64,000 nucleotides of DNA, taken from positions 7,256-71,255 of the forward strand of contig JACPMR010000015.1 of NCBI GenBank assembly GCA_016185945.1, written 5' to 3'. The notes under the pieces are model-generated. The model saw nothing but the letters and a program-made list of their open reading frames with translations, had not been told where the DNA came from and made no database searches. The DNA is from Candidatus Woesearchaeota archaeon. Its GTDB lineage: Archaea; Nanobdellota; Nanobdellia; Woesearchaeales; GW2011-AR4. Positions 5,076-23,814 of the stretch are shown in pieces; within the stretch, counting starts at the first letter, position 1; every line of letters starts with the position of its first letter. Both the position numbers and the translations under genes were made by a program.

Positions 5076-7148
5076 ATGGTAAAGCGCATGGACATTCTGG
5101 AATGGGTTTTTAGGGAAAGGCCTTGGGAACAGCAATTGTCCGAGGTTGAGGCGCTAAGAAGCTCTATTAAGGCACAATTGATATTATTTGATGATTTGTG
5201 GAGAGCTCATCAAACAAAGTTATCAGCAATAAAAGCAATAGCCGAAGGATATCTTCCTTATTTAAAAGATATTCCAGAATTAAATAACATAATAATAACT
5301 AATTTTAAGAAAATACTAGAAGGGATAAATTTCAAAGTTCTGATTAAAAAAATTTTGTACGAATCTACTGAAAGACTGCATGAGATTGAAGTTTTTGTTT
5401 GGAGATATGGTGGAGCAAGTCTTCCAGCATGGGATCCTACTACTGGGGAAAAGATTGTACCAAAAGTGGAAATAAAACCCTATAATATAGAAAGTGCAAA
5501 AAGAGCAATATGGAGCATTGTGAAAGACAAACAAGAGTTGGAAGATTTCATTAGAGATGCCTCAAAACAATTGCTGCCGGAGTTAGAAGCATTAAAGAAA
5601 CTTTACAATGAACAACTAGAACCATTCTTGAGGGAACAGTCAGACAAGGCTGGAAGCGGCATATGGACTGGTTTTAATACAGATGAAAATGAAAGATATT
5701 GGAAGCAAGAAGGTGAAATTATTTTACAAATGAAGAGGATTCTAAGTGACATAATAAATAAGACAATTGTAATGGCTAGACTATGGAGCAGAGTAGAGAT
5801 TGAGGAGCTAAAAACAAAAGAAGAATTCATAAAAGAAGTAGGACAAAAAGTAAGAAAAAAAGTGGGGGTTATGCTGATATCTCAAATATCAGGAACACCT
5901 TATCAAATGAGTGAATTTGAGAATTTCCTAAAAAGCATGGGCTACATAACCTATAATGTAAGGCTTCCTGGACATGCAACTTCTTTAGAGGAATTGTTTA
6001 ATACGCCAGTTGACGAAATTGAAAGATTTTTAATAAGCCAATTCAATTTTTTCTATCAAGCTATGAAAAAAATAAACAATGGTGACGGCAGATTTTATAT
6101 TGCAGGAAATTCCCTTGGCGCTATGATGCCATTACATATAATGGCAAAAAGCTGGAAAGTCGCCATAAAAACAGAAAACTCAGCTAAAAAATTTAATGAA
6201 AAAATTGGTGAAACTGTGACAATACACCCTTATCAAGATATGGTTAAAGGAATTATTTCAATCTCGGCAGCAACAAGCCTTGCCGCAGGTCCACTTCCAT
6301 TTGGAGTTGGGCCACCTATGATTAATCTTGGTACAAAGGTAGCAAAAAATCCTATTGCCTCAAAAATATTAACGCCTATAATGGCTCTTTTAGCAGGCAG
6401 AAAAATACGCAAAGAAGGCATAGTAGATTATGCGGGTTCTGTACATATAAAGATTGAGGGGATTAAGAAAAGAATAGACCCTGACCTCGAACCTGATAGA
6501 TTTTATGAAGCGGTAAGAAATGAGATTAAGCCACTAATTCAAGGAATTTACAGAAAAAAGATAGCTAAAATCAATAATCTAAAACTCAAGAACATAATAA
6601 ATAAAAAGATTGAGGAGATTAAACAAGAAATCAACCCAAATCTTTATCCTGATAGATTTTATGAAACAGCAAAGAAAGAGATTGAATTAATTAGAGAGAC
6701 TTTTAGAGGAATGTCAACTGAGATTAGCGAGATGGAACTTAACAGTATGGTTGAACAGGTAATAGATAATGTAAAAAAGGGACTACATGCATTTGCTGGC
6801 GAAAGTTTGATGGGTGTAAGGCCACTACAAGAAAAAATGCGTGGACAGTCTGTTAAAACATTACTAGGCGGTGTATCCAAATTAATATCACAATTAAGGG
6901 AAGATGTAAAACATATTTATATACCGATTCTTATACTTCAGGGACTTCATGACAGTATAACCCACCCTTCAAGCGCAGATTATATTTATAATAATGTTAA
7001 AACAAATCCAAAATTCAAGAAAAAAAGAATGTTAGAAGGTTCAGGACACACGCCACAGTTAGACTTCGATAAAGATATAGTGTTCGAAGAATCTGTCAAA
7101 TTTATTGAGATGGTAGAAGAAAGTGAAAAAGTGCCTGTATATGGCTAA
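5076..7148 (+). CDS. large alpha/beta-hydrolase-fold protein with N-terminal domain of unknown function
   Basis: 690 aa; nucleophile elbow GNSLG, and C-terminal LQGLHDS and GSGHTP consistent with an Asp/His triad; internal duplicated segment (IDPDLEPDRFYEAVRNEIK / INPNLYPDRFYETAKKEIE) inside a long cap insertion. Confidence 0.5.
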   Translation: MVKRMDILEWVFRERPWEQQLSEVEALRSSIKAQLILFDDLWRAHQTKLSAIKAIAEGYLPYLKDIPELNNIIITNFKKILEGINFKVLIKKILYESTERLHEIEVFVWRYGGASLPAWDPTTGEKIVPKVEIKPYNIESAKRAIWSIVKDKQELEDFIRDASKQLLPELEALKKLYNEQLEPFLREQSDKAGSGIWTGFNTDENERYWKQEGEIILQMKRILSDIINKTIVMARLWSRVEIEELKTKEEFIKEVGQKVRKKVGVMLISQISGTPYQMSEFENFLKSMGYITYNVRLPGHATSLEELFNTPVDEIERFLISQFNFFYQAMKKINNGDGRFYIAGNSLGAMMPLHIMAKSWKVAIKTENSAKKFNEKIGETVTIHPYQDMVKGIISISAATSLAAGPLPFGVGPPMINLGTKVAKNPIASKILTPIMALLAGRKIRKEGIVDYAGSVHIKIEGIKKRIDPDLEPDRFYEAVRNEIKPLIQGIYRKKIAKINNLKLKNIINKKIEEIKQEINPNLYPDRFYETAKKEIELIRETFRGMSTEISEMELNSMVEQVIDNVKKGLHAFAGESLMGVRPLQEKMRGQSVKTLLGGVSKLISQLREDVKHIYIPILILQGLHDSITHPSSADYIYNNVKTNPKFKKKRMLEGSGHTPQLDFDKDIVFEESVKFIEMVEESEKVPVYG

Positions 7149-16363: not shown

Positions 16364-16519
16364 GCACCCTCCTTTATTCTGAAAATAAGTGTTGCTATTC
16401 TAAAATAATAACTTGTATTTAAACTTTGTGGTAGTTAAAAGATTTTTAAATAACCTATAAAAATAACATTCAATAAATTGCAAAGGATTCATTCTAAATA
16501 AATTTGTATTGAAAAGAAA

Positions 16520-16594
16520 TGGGCTCGGCGGGACTTGAACCTGCGACCTCTGCCTTATCAGAGCAGCGCTCTAACCAAGCTGAGCTACGAGCCC
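16520..16594 (-). tRNA. tRNA-Ile (anticodon GAU)
   Basis: Minus-strand cloverleaf GGGCUCG-UA-GCUC-AGCUUGGUUA-GAGC-G-CUGCU-CUGAUAA-GGCAG-AGGUC-GCAGG-UUCAAGU-CCCGC-CGAGCCC-A; 7-bp acceptor; one A-C mismatch in the T-stem. Confidence 0.8.
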
Positions 16595-16649
16595 AACAAA
16601 TAATGGAATAATATTTAATTTATAAAGTTTATTAGAAGGAAAAATATAG

Positions 16650-16800
16650 CGCCCTTGACCAGACTTGAACTGGTGACCTTCCATTCCTTTACTAGGATTT
16701 ACGGTGTCTAACCCTGTAGGATAACAGCTTCGTAGTTTCTACCAGAACTCGTACGCTCCACCTATTGCTCCATGCCTTTGCATGTCTGAGCTACAAGGGC
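16650..16800 (-). tRNA. intron-containing tRNA (151 nt; at least two non-canonical introns; isotype unresolved, possibly Arg-UCU)
   Basis: Perfect 7-bp acceptor GCCCUUG/CAAGGGC, canonical U8-A9-GCUC-AG start of the D-arm, T-arm ACCAG-UUCAAGU-CUGGU; about 75 extra nt between D-arm and T-arm including a CAUGCAAAGGCAUG hairpin inside the D-loop. Confidence 0.55.
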
Positions 16801-17570
16801 GTCAAAAATTTTTTAAGTTCTGGTAGATTAGAAACAATTGAACCTTCAAATTCTTTATAAAACTTTCTAGTTAATGATGGGATAAAAAATACAACTTTAT
16901 AACCAAGTTTATTATAGTCTTTGAGTTTCTTCTTTATATGACTAATTCTATCTTTATTGGGATGCTTCCATTCTGTTACTTCAATAATTTTATCATCAAT
17001 TTTAAAGTCAGGAAAATAAACTTTTCCATCTACATTAATATAAGGCTCATACTCAAAACCTATGCTTTCTTGAATTAAAAAATTCCCTATTTTCTGTTCT
17101 AATAAATTTCTTACAGGAATTTCATTATCTAGGCAATATAGATAGCCCCTACCAACTTTCTTGAATCTTTCGTACTGCCAAATATGATATTGTTTTGGAA
17201 GATTTTTTTTCATATATTTATGCCATTTCTTCATTCGCTTGGAACTTATTTTTCTTAGTCTCTCAATCTCGTACTGTAATGTTCCTTCTCGTATCTTCTT
17301 AAGCACGCAGTTTTTTCCACCTTTGATTTGACCCCAATTTTTAGGGAGGTGTTCTAAAATTTCATTTTTGTATTTGGACAAATCTTCATCAATAAATTTC
17401 AGTATTTTTTCTAGTCTATCCGTTCTTACGCATGTCAATTCGAATTTATACTTATAAACCGAACCTTTTGACAGGGTCAATATTTTGCACAATTTCCTTT
17501 CAGAACCAGCTTTGGTTATTGCTCTGCAAATTATTTCTTTTTGCACTCCTTTTTTAAATTTTAAAACCAT
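16791..17570 (-). CDS. HTH plus DUF559/Vsr-like endonuclease-domain protein
   Basis: 259 aa; C-terminal YFPDFKIDDKIIEVTEWKH ... GYKVVFF resembles the DUF559 endonuclease-like pattern (PDF..IIEVdG..H ... GW-V-RF); 3' end overlaps the 5' end of the intron-containing tRNA by about 10 nt. Confidence 0.4.
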   Translation of the reverse strand: MVLKFKKGVQKEIICRAITKAGSERKLCKILTLSKGSVYKYKFELTCVRTDRLEKILKFIDEDLSKYKNEILEHLPKNWGQIKGGKNCVLKKIREGTLQYEIERLRKISSKRMKKWHKYMKKNLPKQYHIWQYERFKKVGRGYLYCLDNEIPVRNLLEQKIGNFLIQESIGFEYEPYINVDGKVYFPDFKIDDKIIEVTEWKHPNKDRISHIKKKLKDYNKLGYKVVFFIPSLTRKFYKEFEGSIVSNLPELKKFLTPL

Positions 17571-18235: not shown

Positions 18236-18604
18236 TTATCTTACAAACTCGACGTTTTCGAAGCCTTTGAATGCATAATCTCCTGTCACGAATTTTAAGT
18301 TTAATTTTAATGCAGCCACATATCCAATGCAATCAGTAAAGCTAAATCTTTTTTTATTATTTGCAAGTTTGAACTTATTTGCGTCTTTGATTATATCATC
18401 ATCTGTGCTCATGATTAATGGCAGTATAAGATTGTATATTCTTTCTGCCTCTTCATTTCCAAAATTCTTCAAGTAATAGAAATGAATTTCCATAATGTTA
18501 AATATTGTTGTTCCGGCTTCTATCGGGCTGATAGAGTAATTACTGTACTTAGGGTTTTGTGTAGCTATTTCTATCAGCGCATAAGTGTCCAGAAAGTATT
18601 GCAT
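18236..18604 (-). CDS. vapC: PIN-domain ribonuclease toxin (VapC-like)
   Basis: MQYFLDTYALIE (first acidic residue), FTDCIGYVAA, TGDYAF: PIN catalytic residues; start taken at the internal Met so that it abuts vapB. Confidence 0.7.
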   Translation of the reverse strand: MQYFLDTYALIEIATQNPKYSNYSISPIEAGTTIFNIMEIHFYYLKNFGNEEAERIYNLILPLIMSTDDDIIKDANKFKLANNKKRFSFTDCIGYVAALKLNLKFVTGDYAFKGFENVEFVR

Positions 18605-18605
18605 T

Positions 18606-18827
18606 TTACCTATTCCATTCCTTCCTAAGCTCGTCTTTTGCCTTCTGCGCATCAATTTTTAGATGCTTGCTTGCGCCCCACAATTTGCTTAAATCAACTT
18701 TCGGGATAATCTCGAAAGTAACTTCCTGGCCGACTTTTAGTTTTCTCTCTTTGACATAATGCGGAGGAACAGTCAAAACAATGCTGTTTCCTGACTTCCT
18801 GACTCTTGTAGTTGGCATATTAATCAC
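18606..18827 (-). CDS. vapB: AbrB/MazE-type antitoxin (VapB-like)
   Basis: 73 aa; SpoVT/AbrB swapped-hairpin signature VRKSGNSIVLTVPPHYVKERKLKVGQEV; directly upstream of and overlapping the PIN gene. Confidence 0.65.
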   Translation of the reverse strand: MINMPTTRVRKSGNSIVLTVPPHYVKERKLKVGQEVTFEIIPKVDLSKLWGASKHLKIDAQKAKDELRKEWNR

Positions 18828-18917
18828 CTATGTAATACATATGTAATACGGAAGTATTTAAAGGTTTTGGGTAGGAATATAGGAAATATTTAAATTATCA
18901 AAACTTATCCTGTATAT

Positions 18918-19703
18918 ATGAAAGAGAAAGCTGTAGAAAAAGTGGAAAATTTCATTGATTTATCCATGCCTATTGTGAAAGCCGCTGTTAACATACCTAC
19001 TTTAGGTTTTGGTGGAGCTGTTATCGAAATATTTCAAACTGACTACCGATTATCAAAAGAAAGGAATATTAAAGAGTTTTTTGAAAGTATAGACAAAAAA
19101 CTAAAGGAAATAGGAATACAAATTGATGAGACAATTAAAGAAAGGCTGAAATCTCCTGAATTCTATCAGATTATCACAAGAATACTAACTAAAATTCAAA
19201 TAGAAAGTAGAAAAGAAATAAGAGAGATTTATTCAAATTTACTTATTCAATTACTTAAGGAAGAACCAAAAATTAATTTTAATCAAAAATTATTTTATTT
19301 AGAAATATTGGGAAATTTAAATGAAGACCATATTAAAATATTAAGTGTTTTTTATAAGGAAGGGGAAGTAAAAAGCAGATTTAGACTAGATTCACTTTAT
19401 GAAAAGACTCGATGTTATGAAACCAAGAAATTAAAAAAAGGTGATCCAGATTTTGATTTTATGGGATTTAAAGAACGGAAAACTCTAAATTATGCGAAAT
19501 CTTCTTATTTTAAAGGTTTAGTAAGTGACTTAGTTGGTAAACAAATAATTGATATTTTTCAAGAAATTGAATCAACCCCAGAATACAAAGAAGAGGGAGA
19601 TGTTAGAAAAGAGTTAAAATCTATTGAATCAGAAATAAAGGAAGAATATGAAGGAACAGAATTGGGATTAAGTTTCTATAAATTTGTTCTGACTTATAAA
19701 TGA
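18918..19703 (+). CDS. hypothetical protein, first gene of a two-gene module (possible Abi-like partner)
   Basis: 261 aa, no recognisable catalytic motif; hydrophobic Gly-rich N-terminal segment IPTLGFGGAVIEIF; co-oriented, 35 bp upstream of a PD-(D/E)xK nuclease-like gene. Confidence 0.4.
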   Translation: MKEKAVEKVENFIDLSMPIVKAAVNIPTLGFGGAVIEIFQTDYRLSKERNIKEFFESIDKKLKEIGIQIDETIKERLKSPEFYQIITRILTKIQIESRKEIREIYSNLLIQLLKEEPKINFNQKLFYLEILGNLNEDHIKILSVFYKEGEVKSRFRLDSLYEKTRCYETKKLKKGDPDFDFMGFKERKTLNYAKSSYFKGLVSDLVGKQIIDIFQEIESTPEYKEEGDVRKELKSIESEIKEEYEGTELGLSFYKFVLTYK

Positions 19704-19738
19704 AAAATCAAAATTTTTAAAGGAATTCAGATTAATTT

Positions 19739-20635
19739 TTGAACATGGATAATTCAATCAAAGAAAAGATAAAAAATCACATTTTAGAGCATGGATTTTT
19801 ATTAGAAGAAGAAACTAAAACTTTCTTAGAGTTACAAGGATGGGAATGTGAAAGAAATGCTCATTTCGTCGATCAAGATGTTCCAACCGAATCAAGAGAG
19901 ATTGATATAATTGCCCGTAATTTTAGTTGGTATAAAAATTTTGACCCAAAAAGGATTCTAGTTAGATTTGATTTAATAATTGAATGTAAAAACTATAAAG
20001 ATCCAATAGTATTTTTTTCTACTAATAAAACTAGAGAGGACAAAGAAATTTTCTTTTCAAAAGAATTGATCAATTTTTTTACTACCCATGATACTGTTTA
20101 CGTGCCTATTCCAGAATCACAAAATAAAAAAGTTATATCTGTTGCTGAATTCTTGAAAATTGATAAATATCATCATTTTTTTAATAGTAATTTAAAAGCC
20201 ACAAACCTTAATTTATCAAGAGTTAAGTCTGATTATTCATTCTCAAATATAAAATTATATGAAGCTACTATATTACCATTAATCAAAGCAAATGACTGGT
20301 ACAGAGCAGACCGTAAGAATAGTGTTAAACTTTTTGCTGGAAATAGTATCCACGTACCATTTTCATTTATTATTCCAATTTTAGTACTTGGTAATGATTT
20401 TTTTGAAGCATATTTTGAAAATGGAGAGCTTAAATTAAAAAAATCAGATTATATTCAATTTATTTCTGATTATAGATCCAAAAATATAAATGGACGTTTC
20501 CAAATTGATATAGTGAATAAAAGTTATTTTGAAAATTATCTAAAAGAAAAAGTAGATGTGACTATTAATAAGGTTAGTGAAGTTATATTAAATAACTTCC
20601 AAGATATAGATAGATTTAGTCATATTTCAAATTAA
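19739..20635 (+). CDS. PD-(D/E)xK (restriction-endonuclease-fold) nuclease-like protein with C-terminal domain of unknown function
   Basis: N-terminal segment EIDIIARNF ... RFDLIIECKNY supplies a D ... D-x4-E-C-K motif typical of Mrr/NERD-like nucleases; about 200 aa of unassigned C-terminus. Confidence 0.5.
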   Translation: MNMDNSIKEKIKNHILEHGFLLEEETKTFLELQGWECERNAHFVDQDVPTESREIDIIARNFSWYKNFDPKRILVRFDLIIECKNYKDPIVFFSTNKTREDKEIFFSKELINFFTTHDTVYVPIPESQNKKVISVAEFLKIDKYHHFFNSNLKATNLNLSRVKSDYSFSNIKLYEATILPLIKANDWYRADRKNSVKLFAGNSIHVPFSFIIPILVLGNDFFEAYFENGELKLKKSDYIQFISDYRSKNINGRFQIDIVNKSYFENYLKEKVDVTINKVSEVILNNFQDIDRFSHISN

Positions 20636-20643
20636 AAATATAA

Positions 20644-21039
20644 TTATTTAATAATTGAAGTATTAATAAGATTTTGTGTAGTTCCTAAATATCCTCCAAA
20701 CCATAAAGCTGCTATGATTAAGATAGAAAAGGAACCGTATGCTAAAAAACTAATTTGATAGAACTCAACTGGAAGACTTTCTTTTGATAGATAAGCTACT
20801 AAGGCAATTATACCTATAATTGTACCAATATTAAGATAAATTTGAAACCAGTTAGGTAAATTATTGAAATAATGATAAAAGATCTGCCATAATAATAAAG
20901 AATTTAAAAAAATGCCAACTCTTCCTATATAAGATTGTCTAAATTCAACAATACCTGCAACTACTAATCCTATCATAGCAATATATGATAGGGATTTTGG
21001 TAGTATTATTAATGTCTCAATCATTAAAGGTGTTGTCAT
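20644..21039 (-). CDS. small integral membrane protein (4 TM), unknown function
   Basis: 131 aa, four hydrophobic helices. Confidence 0.4.
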   Translation of the reverse strand: MTTPLMIETLIILPKSLSYIAMIGLVVAGIVEFRQSYIGRVGIFLNSLLLWQIFYHYFNNLPNWFQIYLNIGTIIGIIALVAYLSKESLPVEFYQISFLAYGSFSILIIAALWFGGYLGTTQNLINTSIIK

Positions 21040-21082: not shown

Positions 21083-21400
21083 TTAAGAGTTTATTACATC
21101 TTGTGCAATTTTCTTATAAATTAAATGTAATAAATTATATTTATTATTTTTTTTATTTATCTGGAAATATTTTGATTTATCATCTTCCCTTGTTTGTACA
21201 ATTAAATTTTTATCTAATAAATCTTTAATTGCATTTCTAACTGCTGTTCTTGATAATCCAGTACCTTTATGAATTTGAGTTATGGTAAAATCAAAATTCT
21301 CTCCTAAAAAAAAGAAATCAAGAACTTTAATGGTATTATTAGTACCAAAAACATTTTCAAAAAGGGGTTTACCTAAAAGTAATTTTTGTTTCATCGCCAA
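21083..21400 (-). CDS. winged-helix transcriptional regulator
   Basis: 105 aa; HTH segment ITQIHKGTGLSRTAVRNAIKDLLDKNLIV. Confidence 0.5.
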   Translation of the reverse strand: MAMKQKLLLGKPLFENVFGTNNTIKVLDFFFLGENFDFTITQIHKGTGLSRTAVRNAIKDLLDKNLIVQTREDDKSKYFQINKKNNKYNLLHLIYKKIAQDVINS

Positions 21401-21516: not shown

Positions 21517-21756
21517 TTATCTTTTTCTTGGAACAAAAGTTAACTTACCATTTTTCAATGGAATAATTTCCTTTCTTTCAATCAAGCCATCAATTGATTT
21601 ATCCGAATTTTTGGTATTTATACCAATATTTTTTAGATAAACAACAATCTCTGCTCGATGAAAGCTGGTTATTCCAGCGTTCTTTAATTCGATAAGATAG
21701 TTTTGTACTATGTTATCTATGGGCCTCATCGTAATCACCTTCCCCCACCGACCCAA
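21517..21756 (-). CDS. small hypothetical protein
   Basis: 79 aa ORF followed by a 9-bp perfect inverted repeat CACCCTAAC ... GTTAGGGTG at 21457-21495. Confidence 0.3.
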   Translation of the reverse strand: MGRWGKVITMRPIDNIVQNYLIELKNAGITSFHRAEIVVYLKNIGINTKNSDKSIDGLIERKEIIPLKNGKLTFVPRKR

Positions 21757-21950
21757 GCAGGTTTAAACATGATTTTTCAGGAGGAAAAATCAATGGCAAA
21801 TACAACAATTTCTTTTTGGAAGGTGATTAGTCGTTGCCGACTAACAAGATGTGTTATTCTTAGAGTTTATAAATGTTTCCTTTTTAGAACATTATCGTCT
21901 TAAAAAAGACATAAACTAAACCTATAGATTTGGAATAAACCCTTTCTAAA

Positions 21951-22040
21951 CCTCCACTTCCCTCTCCACCACAATCTTCCCTGTCACACTCCTCACTATT
22001 TGATTGATTATCTCCAAATCATAGAATTGTTTTAGTGAAA
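21951..22040. repeat. degenerate direct duplicate of the 3' end of the radical SAM gene (att-like)
   Basis: CCACTTCC ... ACAATCTTCCCTGTCACACTCCTCA matches CCACTTCC ... ACAACCTTCCCAGTCACGCTCCTCA at 22331-22420 (the real gene end), about 22/25 identity in the core and weaker on the flanks; the copies bracket the Bro-N fragment. Confidence 0.55.
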
Positions 22041-22124: not shown

Positions 22125-22352
22125 ATGGAGCCTGAAAACGCCCTTGTAGTATTCCAAGGCAAGAAAATAAGGAGAACTTGGTTTAATGATGAGTGGTGGT
22201 TTGTAGCCGTTGATATTGTAGAGGCATTGACTGACTCAAAAGACCCTAATGGCTATTTAAAGGATATGCGAAGGAGGGATGAAGGCTTTGCTCAAGGATG
22301 GGGGCAAATTGCCACCCCCCTTTCTATTGATACACCACTTCCACTTTCTTAA
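22125..22352 (+). pseudogene. Bro-N (phage antirepressor N-terminal) domain fragment
   Basis: 75 aa: ALVVFQGKKIRRTWFNDEWWFVAVDIVEALTDSKDP fits the Bro-N pattern (F-F ... IR ... WF-A-DVA--LG); truncated, GC-richer than surroundings, 3' end overlaps the radical SAM gene. Confidence 0.5.
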
Positions 22353-23814
22353 CAACCTTCCCAGTCACGCTCCTCAACATCTGCCCCGTAACCTCAATGT
22401 CATAAAACTTCTTCAACTCTAGTCTTCCTTTAACCCCAACAATGATAGGATATGTTCCAAATTGACGGCAAAAAGTTGTATTCCCATCATAAATCTCGGC
22501 ATAGCAATTAGTCAAAACTGTTCCATTTGGAATTACTCTCTGGAGCATTGGCCAGTCAATCTTCTGCCTTATGTCATTGCGCCATTTCCAATATAATTTC
22601 TTGTTCTTCTTCAGGAACTTGTCTTTGCCTTCATTGTACAAAGAAGTGCCTTCAAATATTGCAACCTGCCTAATATTTATCCTGCGAAGCATCAATCCTT
22701 CATTGTAAATTCTTGAAAGCCATTTCATGTTTTCTTCATGCGTTTTCTTGGTTTCATTCCTCAAGCCGAATATTATGTTGACTCCGGGCAAAAACTTAGG
22801 AAGTCCATCAGAGCCTCCTTCAGAGCCATACTTGTTCAAAATCTTAATTGCTTCATAAGCAATATTTGGCGGAGTGTTCAAAGTGTTTGCCTTGACAACT
22901 TCCATGTCAAATGATTCAATTCCAAAAGCAGCTATGTTGCCTGAAGTGCAATACTTCACAACAGCTTTTGTGATTGCAAAATCATTCTGCCTGTCCATCA
23001 CAACTTTTACAGGGTTTACATTGTCAATGTGCAAAACTTTTATGCCAGGGCATTTCTCATTGATTTCTTTTAACAATTCAGCAGCATAAGGCAAAGTGTA
23101 AAAGCATGTCTGCTTTCCCAATCTAAAGTAGCGAGCGCCAAGCTTGTAAAACTCAATAATTTCATTCAGAACATCCTCTTTATTCCTGAACTCAACCTTA
23201 TTCTTCAAAGGCTCTGTGCAGAAAGAGCATTTTCCAATGTCGCAGCCATGCCCTGTCTCAATCTCAACCATTCTCAAGCCAGGAATCTGTTTTATGATTG
23301 ATGCCCCTTTAACGGAATATTCCTTAACATCCTTGTACGGAAAATTAAACATCAAATGCTCAACCTTGTCAAAAATGCTTAAATCCGCCTTCTCAAAGAA
23401 CCTGCCTCCGAATAATTGCGTGCCAAACACGGCAGGCCCTGTCAAAATCTTCCTGCATTTCAAATCCTTTAACATCGGGATAATCTCGTGCAAAGTGCCA
23501 GGCACAGCAGAAAGATACTTTCCGGGAACGTGAACGCCAAGAACAACAACCAAAGTTTGTGTTTCCTCCAATATTTTTTCAATATTTTTGTGATTTACAG
23601 TCAGATTGTATGTTGTTATGTCGGTTTTTTGTGATAATTTTGTCTCCTTGACAATTCCGTTATGCTTCTTCCATAACCTCAAATCATCAATTGTCAGGTA
23701 ATTAACATCTTCATTAAGGTAGCCGGCTATGTACCTTGGGTATGTGCCAAGGTAAGGAGGCACTCCCAAGCCAGCGGGCTCGTCAGTATAGCAGTCAATT
23801 ATAGTATAAGTCAT
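22324..23814 (-). CDS. radical SAM superfamily protein (archaeal subfamily, unusual CX4CX2C cluster)
   Basis: 496 aa; Cys cluster GHGCDIGKCSFCTEP (C-x4-C-x2-C); N-terminal domain of unknown function (MTYTIIDCYTDEPAGLGVPP) is a possible B12-binding-like module. Confidence 0.65.
   Translation of the reverse strand: MTYTIIDCYTDEPAGLGVPPYLGTYPRYIAGYLNEDVNYLTIDDLRLWKKHNGIVKETKLSQKTDITTYNLTVNHKNIEKILEETQTLVVVLGVHVPGKYLSAVPGTLHEIIPMLKDLKCRKILTGPAVFGTQLFGGRFFEKADLSIFDKVEHLMFNFPYKDVKEYSVKGASIIKQIPGLRMVEIETGHGCDIGKCSFCTEPLKNKVEFRNKEDVLNEIIEFYKLGARYFRLGKQTCFYTLPYAAELLKEINEKCPGIKVLHIDNVNPVKVVMDRQNDFAITKAVVKYCTSGNIAAFGIESFDMEVVKANTLNTPPNIAYEAIKILNKYGSEGGSDGLPKFLPGVNIIFGLRNETKKTHEENMKWLSRIYNEGLMLRRINIRQVAIFEGTSLYNEGKDKFLKKNKKLYWKWRNDIRQKIDWPMLQRVIPNGTVLTNCYAEIYDGNTTFCRQFGTYPIIVGVKGRLELKKFYDIEVTGQMLRSVTGKVVKKVEVVYQ

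Follow-up and report, generated by a model that had tools for sequence, protein, structure and literature searches.

Probably two stacked single-gene accessory units rather than one defence module: an Abi_alpha homolog and an uncatalogued, putative PD-(D/E)xK-type nuclease in a Woesearchaeota archaeon

The two genes described here lie on contig JACPMR010000015.1 (assembly GCA_016185945.1) of the metagenome-assembled genome of Candidatus Woesearchaeota archaeon, within a stretch of 64,000 nucleotides (nt) that was analysed as a whole and is referred to below as the window. Both ORFs (open reading frames) reported by a first-pass annotation, made from the sequence alone, are present on the forward strand: gene 1, of 261 amino acids (aa), at positions 18918-19703, and gene 2, of 298 aa when read from a TTG codon, at 19739-20635. 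The annotation had proposed that they form a two-gene defence or abortive-infection module, and the evidence assembled below points instead to two separate accessory genes. Translation of gene 2 probably begins at the ATG at 19745, which yields a protein of 296 aa (19745-20635, forward strand; NCBI HYX02_06350); this start is favoured because the NCBI model has 296 aa, because the ortholog on contig L001, from a related Woesearchaeote, begins with MDNSIKEK at the same point, and because a TTTAAA TATA-like box (19716-19721, forward strand) is centred 26.5 nt upstream of it. The spacer between the genes measures 35 base pairs (bp) to the TTG and 41 bp to the ATG, and residue numbers of gene 2 refer to the 296-aa form throughout.

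By its profile match, gene 1 is a genuine member of the Abi_alpha (DUF4393) family, a kinship that the first-pass annotation had offered as a suggestion. Its product, identical to NCBI HYX02_06345, matches PF14337 with an E-value of 3e-10 and 40.9 bits, above the gathering cutoff of 29, across residues 47-256 (profile positions 2-195/196), and the PF14337 match recorded for the identical NCBI protein agrees. Outside the Pfam domain, at residues 18-39, lies the Gly-rich hydrophobic segment PIVKAAVNIPTLGFGGAVIEIF, which the annotation had also noticed and which is real and conserved in close relatives: P18, A22, N25, T28, G30, G33 and I36 are invariant in the six sequences of a small DPANN-type subfamily to which the segment is specific, and the segment, with a mean Kyte-Doolittle hydropathy of 1.35, is less hydrophobic than a classical transmembrane helix. 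Searches of PADLOC, NCBIfam and PHROGs with gene 1 added nothing, and no relative was found when the gene-1 alignment was compared with viral contigs. The founder of the family, EF2833 of prophage 6 in Enterococcus faecalis V583, is a single gene for a 272-aa protein that, cloned alone on a plasmid, caused abortive infection with premature lysis against phage Idefix by an unknown mechanism (PMC6356687), and 'AbiAlpha' appears as a one-protein system in a published table of defence systems (PMC12915292). Gene 1 resembles EF2833 in its end-to-end profile match, its length (261 vs 272 aa), its relatives without a fixed partner and its location in a horizontally acquired island; it differs in its host, a DPANN archaeon as opposed to a Firmicute prophage, in having no BLAST-level similarity to phage-borne members and in belonging to a subfamily with the additional conserved N-terminal segment.

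Gene 1 adds a member to a known family, from a host that is unusual for it. Gene 2 can be placed in a known superfamily, but its own family is found in none of the curated libraries searched. No match was obtained in Pfam, NCBIfam, PADLOC, PHROGs or the PDB sequences, and its assignment to a known PADLOC system was rejected for want of a model match. A word-indexed search returned only the protein itself and one homolog of ~55% identity; an exhaustive profile search recovered 591 cluster representatives at E<=1e-3, 96 of them at E<=1e-10, nearly all of which stand alone, measure 250-330 aa and match over their full length. Among 71 members of this family, none carries a credible Pfam, NCBIfam or PADLOC assignment (PADLOC gave isolated weak matches to AbiLi, 3e-4, and Csn2, 1.2e-3, in one member each), and the profile built from the 71 sequences found no match among PDB sequences. 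Plasmids yielded a single weak match to gene 2, and a tblastn search of cultured phages with family member P0162 found nothing. A match to DnaK (E 0.008, residues 190-285), produced by a two-sequence profile, vanished with the 71-sequence profile and is considered spurious.

The motif EIDIIA...LIIECKNY, from which the first-pass annotation had deduced a restriction-endonuclease fold, is present in gene 2, and its conservation shows that it is not a chance pattern. The columns E21, D43, R51, E52, D54, E80, C81, K82, K181 and P211 are invariant across 22-71 homologs, with E21, D54, E80 and K82 invariant in 22 sequences and E21, D43 and D54 in 71. The aspartate of 'RFD' (D76) is unconserved, so the likely catalytic set is E21/D54/E80/K82; the proposed PD-(D/E)xK-type core therefore stands, but the D-x4-E-x-K arrangement in which it had been read does not. 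Comparison of the window with L001 gives a ratio of nonsynonymous (dN) to synonymous (dS) divergence of 0.26 for gene 2, indicating that it is under purifying selection. A role in Type II restriction-modification was rejected, as no DNA methyltransferase gene adjoins gene 2 in the window or recurs in the family neighbourhoods, the only Dam-type methylase gene being on a 42-kb viral contig that carries a family member (L025). A housekeeping identity as Hjc or NucS, the alternative named by the first-pass annotation, was also rejected, since neither gene 2 nor its 71 relatives match the corresponding Pfam families and the genomic contexts are heterogeneous and often mobile. In Polaribacter sp. 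(L020, 5992-6812), the family member is split into ORFs of 73 and 206 aa and is probably a frameshifted pseudogene, which would fit a dispensable accessory gene.

The structure of gene 2 was modelled with AlphaFold2 (mean predicted local distance difference test, pLDDT, 88.7; predicted template modelling score, pTM, 0.87); a model derived from a two-sequence alignment (pLDDT 33.9) was discarded. The predicted catalytic core spans residues ~17-94 (19793-20026, forward strand) and comprises a helix with E21 and β-strands with D43, D54 and E80-C81-K82, the catalytic residues being carried by helix 20-30 and by strands 50-66 and 69-82. In the model, the rest of the protein consists of a long helix that bears the invariant K181, a sheet of five strands and, at the C-terminus, another long helix. 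The top Foldseek matches in the PDB are AF1548 (the best), the R2 restriction-like endonuclease and lambda exonuclease, and the viral fold matches are Hjc and PD-(D/E)xK proteins. In addition, E21/D54/E80/K82 align with E9/D33/E46/K48 of Hjc (PDB 1GEF), at an hhalign probability of 17%, and NERD and UPF0102 give sub-threshold Pfam matches with E ~0.09. Together, the invariant motif residues, the consistent ranking of PD-(D/E)xK folds at the top and the register with Hjc support the presence of a PD-(D/E)xK-type catalytic core. The order helix-Glu, strand-Asp, strand Glu-x-Lys is common to gene 2, Hjc (1GEF), AF1548 (1Y88), YraN-UPF0102 and NERD; unlike Hjc and the other minimal nucleases of the superfamily, gene 2 reaches the threshold of no family, contains ~200 extra residues and occurs in variable contexts.

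Each of the two genes is preceded by a promoter-like box of its own. The box upstream of gene 1 (TTTAAA, 18889-18894, forward strand) is likewise centred 26.5 nt before the ATG, and both boxes are putative leaderless promoters; a run of five T residues directly after the stop codon of gene 1 may represent an archaeal terminator. Across the window, TTTAAA occurs 17 times upstream of long ORFs, with 9 of these occurrences concentrated at -25.5 to -28.5, and TTTAAA or TTTATA is found at -30 to -23 in 18 of 58 genes, a placement that typifies leaderless archaeal transcripts. This sharp clustering of TATA-like sequences 25-29 nt before ATG codons suggests that leaderless transcription from canonical TATA boxes is common among the genes of this Woesearchaeote. 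Genes 1 and 2 are probably transcribed independently, though read-through from the one into the other is conceivable.

The distribution of the two genes leads in the same direction. Outside the window, the pair is confined to three syntenic Hainich contigs: L001, which derives from a related groundwater Woesearchaeote and carries the ~55%-identical homolog of gene 2, and L002 and L026, which represent the same population as L001. The gene order on L001 is FKBP, Fic, PIN, AbrB-like, ParE, RHH (ribbon-helix-helix), Abi_alpha, gene 2 and radical SAM (S-adenosylmethionine), and conserved synteny within one lineage signifies inherited adjacency, not independent co-occurrence. The gene-2 family was therefore followed into 17 genome loci (from Nanoarchaeota, Bacteroidota, Cloacimonadota, Planctomycetota, Desulfobaccales, Chloroflexia and Synechococcus), 2 viral contigs and 5 further metagenomic contexts, about 21 of which are independent; the genome loci were retrieved with a subfamily alignment and are biased towards the 'CECKNN' subgroup. 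No Abi_alpha gene was found beside any of the ~21 independent loci, and no neighbour matches the gene-1 hidden Markov model. Among the Pfam matches listed (25 of 76 families) for 56 flanking genes, sampled two per side where available at 15 distinct genome loci, Abi_alpha is absent, and none was seen in the recorded Pfam annotations of the five further contexts. In the other direction, relatives of gene 1 at 38-51% identity (L003, L004, L029 and L030) have unrelated neighbours and no fixed partner, with a gene-2-family member at 0 of these 4 informative loci. All-against-all clustering of 205 neighbours revealed no recurrent partner, except for a winged helix-turn-helix (wHTH) and small-protein pair at the Nanoarchaeota locus L008, described below. 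Co-occurrence in other genomes, which had been set beforehand as the test of the two-gene proposal, is thus essentially lacking for this pair.

Sequence divergence between the window and L001 adds a historical dimension. Sliding-window identity delimits a block of ~0.92 kb (18880-19800, forward strand; L001 2740-3660) that is 95-100% identical and takes in Abi_alpha with its putative promoter, the spacer and the initial ~55 nt of gene 2, so that the cassette breakpoint falls within the 5' end of gene 2. The flanking PIN, antitoxin and radical-SAM genes are ~80% identical at the nt level, with dS of 1.25-2.4 and aa identities of 85-87%; Abi_alpha reaches 93.6% nt identity, with dS of 0.195 and 91% aa identity; gene 2 stands at 67% nt identity, with dS of 1.27, dN of 0.33 and 56% aa identity. 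The block, taken with the contrast in dS, indicates that the Abi_alpha cassette was exchanged recently, and by itself, against the background of an old and fast-evolving gene 2. By these sequence comparisons, the two genes have different evolutionary histories at the locus, and the cassette indicates a recent horizontal exchange or recombination between two Woesearchaeota populations.

These observations bear directly on the two-gene proposal in its most defensible form, a lineage-specific abortive-infection system of recent origin in which Abi-alpha would sense infection or anchor at the membrane and would activate or partner the nuclease. The genes are co-oriented, 35-41 bp apart and adjacent on all three Hainich contigs, the block of 95-100% identity runs through Abi_alpha and the spacer into gene 2, and another member of the gene-2 family lies in a tight, co-oriented array two genes downstream of HEPN_AbiU2, a different Abi-type gene. 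That array, observed in five samples (L038-L042, SRR306815xx; positions ~150-2850), consists of HEPN_AbiU2 (212 aa), a 184-aa protein of unknown type, the gene-2-family nuclease (283 aa) and a second such protein of 178 aa; neither of the two unassigned proteins matches PADLOC, the 184-aa protein is unrelated to Abi_alpha, and the four genes might constitute a multi-gene defence cassette. Adjacency confined to one syntenic lineage carries little information, however, and the absence of each gene from the loci of the other's relatives (0 of ~21 and 0 of 4), the separate promoter-like boxes, the pairing of 91%-identical Abi_alpha alleles with 56%-identical gene 2 alleles, which speaks against co-adaptation, and the activity of Abi-alpha on its own in E. 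faecalis (PMC6356687) make such a system improbable. The first-pass reading as a two-gene module is not supported, on these grounds: adjacency in a single lineage, separate promoter-like boxes and different histories.

The interpretation that we favour, at a probability of roughly 60%, is that the locus holds two accessory units of one gene each, transcribed independently, acquired horizontally and stacked in a hot spot for integration and toxin-antitoxin genes, an Abi-alpha acting alone and a solitary nuclease active in defence or exclusion. Several observations weigh against it. Gene 2 matches no defence model in PADLOC-DB v2.0; its fold matches are all weak (best Foldseek E 0.015) and are limited to the N-terminal ~50-90 residues, the C-terminal ~200 residues having no fold match; and many neighbours of its relatives are ordinary metabolic genes, which leaves an enrichment in defence islands no more than suggestive. 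Gene 1 is tied to Abi-alpha at the profile level only, and a tblastn search of cultured phages found no BLAST-level relative of it. Moreover, the genes share one orientation, lie within 41 bp of each other and have stayed together in the only close relative, and the extension of the high-identity block into gene 2 leaves room for functional coupling specific to the lineage.

The analysis shows the family memberships, the conserved catalytic residues, the lack of co-occurrence, the separate promoter-like boxes, the mosaic history and the mobile or defence-type surroundings; antiviral function, substrate, trigger and membrane action are what we infer for genes 1 and 2. As two separate units, the genes would operate as follows. 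By analogy with the Abi-alpha of E. faecalis, gene 1 would need no partner to bring about abortive infection, killing the infected cell or lysing it prematurely, and its Gly-rich N-terminal segment may act at the membrane, as the premature-lysis phenotype of the founder would suggest. Gene 2 would be a nuclease of the PD-(D/E)xK type that works by itself and depends on metal; its catalytic residues, both the acidic ones and the lysine, appear intact in sequence and model. It would probably serve as a self-contained DNA-cutting effector of defence or exclusion with no need of gene 1, being either restriction-like, with foreign or modified DNA as its target, or activated by infection, and its family moves as a stand-alone gene among bacteria, DPANN archaea and phages. 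In these respects, gene 2 recalls the Type IV Mrr-type restriction enzymes and other single-gene PD-(D/E)xK effectors: it is stand-alone, has no adjacent methyltransferase and shows a patchy phyletic distribution, and its family occurs on phages and integrative elements and has defence-gene neighbours. It differs from the Mrr type in having neither a PADLOC nor a Pfam Mrr_cat match and in containing no recognisable DNA-modification reader domain.

The wider neighbourhoods of the gene-2 family are varied and often accessory or mobile in character. Among the 56 flanking genes, PADLOC identified PDC-S13, a Type I S subunit, PDC-S05, a two-transmembrane (2TM) effector of the CBASS type (cyclic-oligonucleotide-based antiphage signalling), a dCTPase and a caspase, and Pfam identified Nmad3, CdiI_3, rve and deaminases; ten neighbours that lacked annotation gave no PADLOC match. 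On L024, the family member lies near phage capsid and portal genes, and the further metagenomic contexts include tyrosine integrases, ImmA/IrrE, Fic and many ORFans. That the family as a whole represents an undescribed single-gene antiviral nuclease family distributed across DPANN archaea, many bacterial phyla and phages, perhaps recruited to Abi-alpha in the present lineage, is a proposal that we advance only tentatively.

The island surrounding the pair is itself of mobile character. Its GC content over 19-22 kb is 0.25-0.28 against ~0.37 elsewhere in the window, which marks the region as compositionally foreign. Downstream of gene 2, on the reverse strand, follow a 131-aa multi-pass hydrophobic protein (20644-21039) in a low-GC insert absent from L001, with its own TTTAAA box at -27.5; a 105-aa winged-helix protein of the MarR/TrmB-like type (21083-21400); and a 79-aa protein (21517-21756). 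Beyond them, what is left of the radical-SAM gene's former 3' end (21947-22028, reverse strand), matched at 83% by L001 4494-4575, forms an att-like duplication: its translation, ending in RSVTGKIVVEREVEV before the stop codon, is close to the C-terminus of the L001 radical-SAM protein, RSVTGKVVVEREVEV, and the live radical-SAM gene (3' end 22324-22433, reverse strand) now ends in KVVKKVEVVYQ. Between the old and the current 3' ends lies a 75-aa Bro-N-like fragment (22125-22352, forward strand; Pfam Bro-N E 1.2e-3, sub-threshold), probably the remnant of an integrated element. The displaced 3' end and the fragment enclosed by the two ends constitute the footprint of an element that integrated into the gene at its 3' end and supplied a new end in place of the old one; this footprint, and cargo that differs between relatives, identify the stretch bounded by the FKBP and radical-SAM genes as an insertion hot spot. 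At this hot spot, L001 carries a Fic-domain protein (459-1343) and a ParE/RHH-like pair (2175-2683) that are missing from the window, and the window carries the membrane-protein, wHTH and 79-aa genes that are missing from L001.

Two of these accessory genes have counterparts at the Nanoarchaeota locus L008, where homologs of the wHTH and 79-aa proteins (302-637 and 712-957) flank a gene-2-family member: the wHTH homolog (53% identity, blastp E 1e-42) adjoins that member, and the 79-aa homolog (36% identity) lies between the wHTH gene and it. The same locus encodes an archaeal integrase of the SSV type (5816-6436; PF16795, E 8e-38), and by sequence, the shared wHTH and ~80-aa proteins suggest a common backbone of DPANN mobile or integrative elements. 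The L008 metagenome-assembled genome, which is unrelated to that of the window, also contains a 429-aa ORF without annotation and two small paired genes that resemble, by eye, an RHH antitoxin with a RelE-like toxin. From such a setting, gene 2 could be explained as a nuclease for the maintenance, recombination or replication of the integrated element, resolvase-like or end-processing, with the wHTH and 79-aa proteins as parts of the backbone. The L008 genes and integrase, the att-like duplication and Bro-N remnant in the window, the phage member next to capsid and portal genes and the Hjc-like catalytic register are all in keeping with this explanation. Nonetheless, the link to the wHTH and small proteins holds in just 2 of ~21 loci, L001 retains gene 2 without them, and many bacterial members reside among housekeeping genes with no element backbone; furthermore, the gene 2 protein is 2.4 times the length of Hjc, with an hhalign probability of 17% and no Hjc Pfam match. 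We therefore regard a role in element upkeep as unlikely, and the solitary defence or exclusion nuclease remains the preferred interpretation of gene 2.

Upstream of gene 1, on the reverse strand, lie a candidate PIN-domain (VapC-like) toxin gene (18236-18604; Pfam PIN E 2.9e-4, 21.9 bits against a cutoff of 23.6), which belongs to the island context and not to the pair, and an AbrB/MazE-fold, antitoxin-like gene as its VapB-like partner (18606-18827; Pfam MazE_antitoxin E 2.8e-3, 18.0 bits against a cutoff of 24.7). Both Pfam scores are just sub-threshold, and the gene order and the 1-nt spacing fit VapBC; both genes are kept in L001, whose PIN ortholog is 85% identical at the aa level and has a recorded PF01850 match. 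The first-pass placement of genes 1 and 2 in a variable island beside a VapBC-like pair is thereby borne out. With such genes abundant at the locus (PIN and AbrB-like in the window; ParE/RHH and Fic in L001), genes 1 and 2 might themselves be viewed as a toxin-antitoxin-like pair that stabilises the island, with the nuclease as the toxin neutralised by gene 1, or the reverse; a solitary nuclease would also need some control to spare its own cell. This arrangement is very improbable: members of the gene-2 family overwhelmingly stand alone and have no small partner that is conserved, gene 1 encodes an Abi_alpha protein of 261 aa in which the Pfam scan detected no antitoxin-like DNA-binding fold, and the two genes do not occur together elsewhere.

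Elsewhere in the window, a 259-aa protein encoded on the reverse strand at 16791-17570 has an endonuclease-like C-terminal region (phrog_29037 'endonuclease', E 1.7e-6; PADLOC PDC-S68, E 9e-5) and a very weak HTH-like match at its N-terminus (YdaS_toxin, E 0.14). Its gene lies directly beside tRNA-Ile (16519-16595, reverse strand), the only tRNA gene of the window, and by these matches it may represent a further nuclease of a mobile or defence-related kind.

The genomes of DPANN archaea are tiny. These archaea are reported to have few CRISPR or restriction-modification systems, to be enriched in compact systems of a single gene and to rely on them for defence (PMC12988326), which fits the interpretation favoured here, and the present locus would offer a concrete case of such compact defences: a recently exchanged groundwater Abi-alpha homolog beside an uncatalogued solitary nuclease. 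The adjacency of two defence-like genes in one lineage does not amount to evidence of a system, as the lack of co-occurrence of this pair illustrates, and the two-gene architecture from which its apparent novelty arose does not hold up. The remaining interest lies mainly in the nuclease family, which, if it is indeed antiviral, would provide a small and easily testable defence candidate spanning archaea, bacteria and phages.

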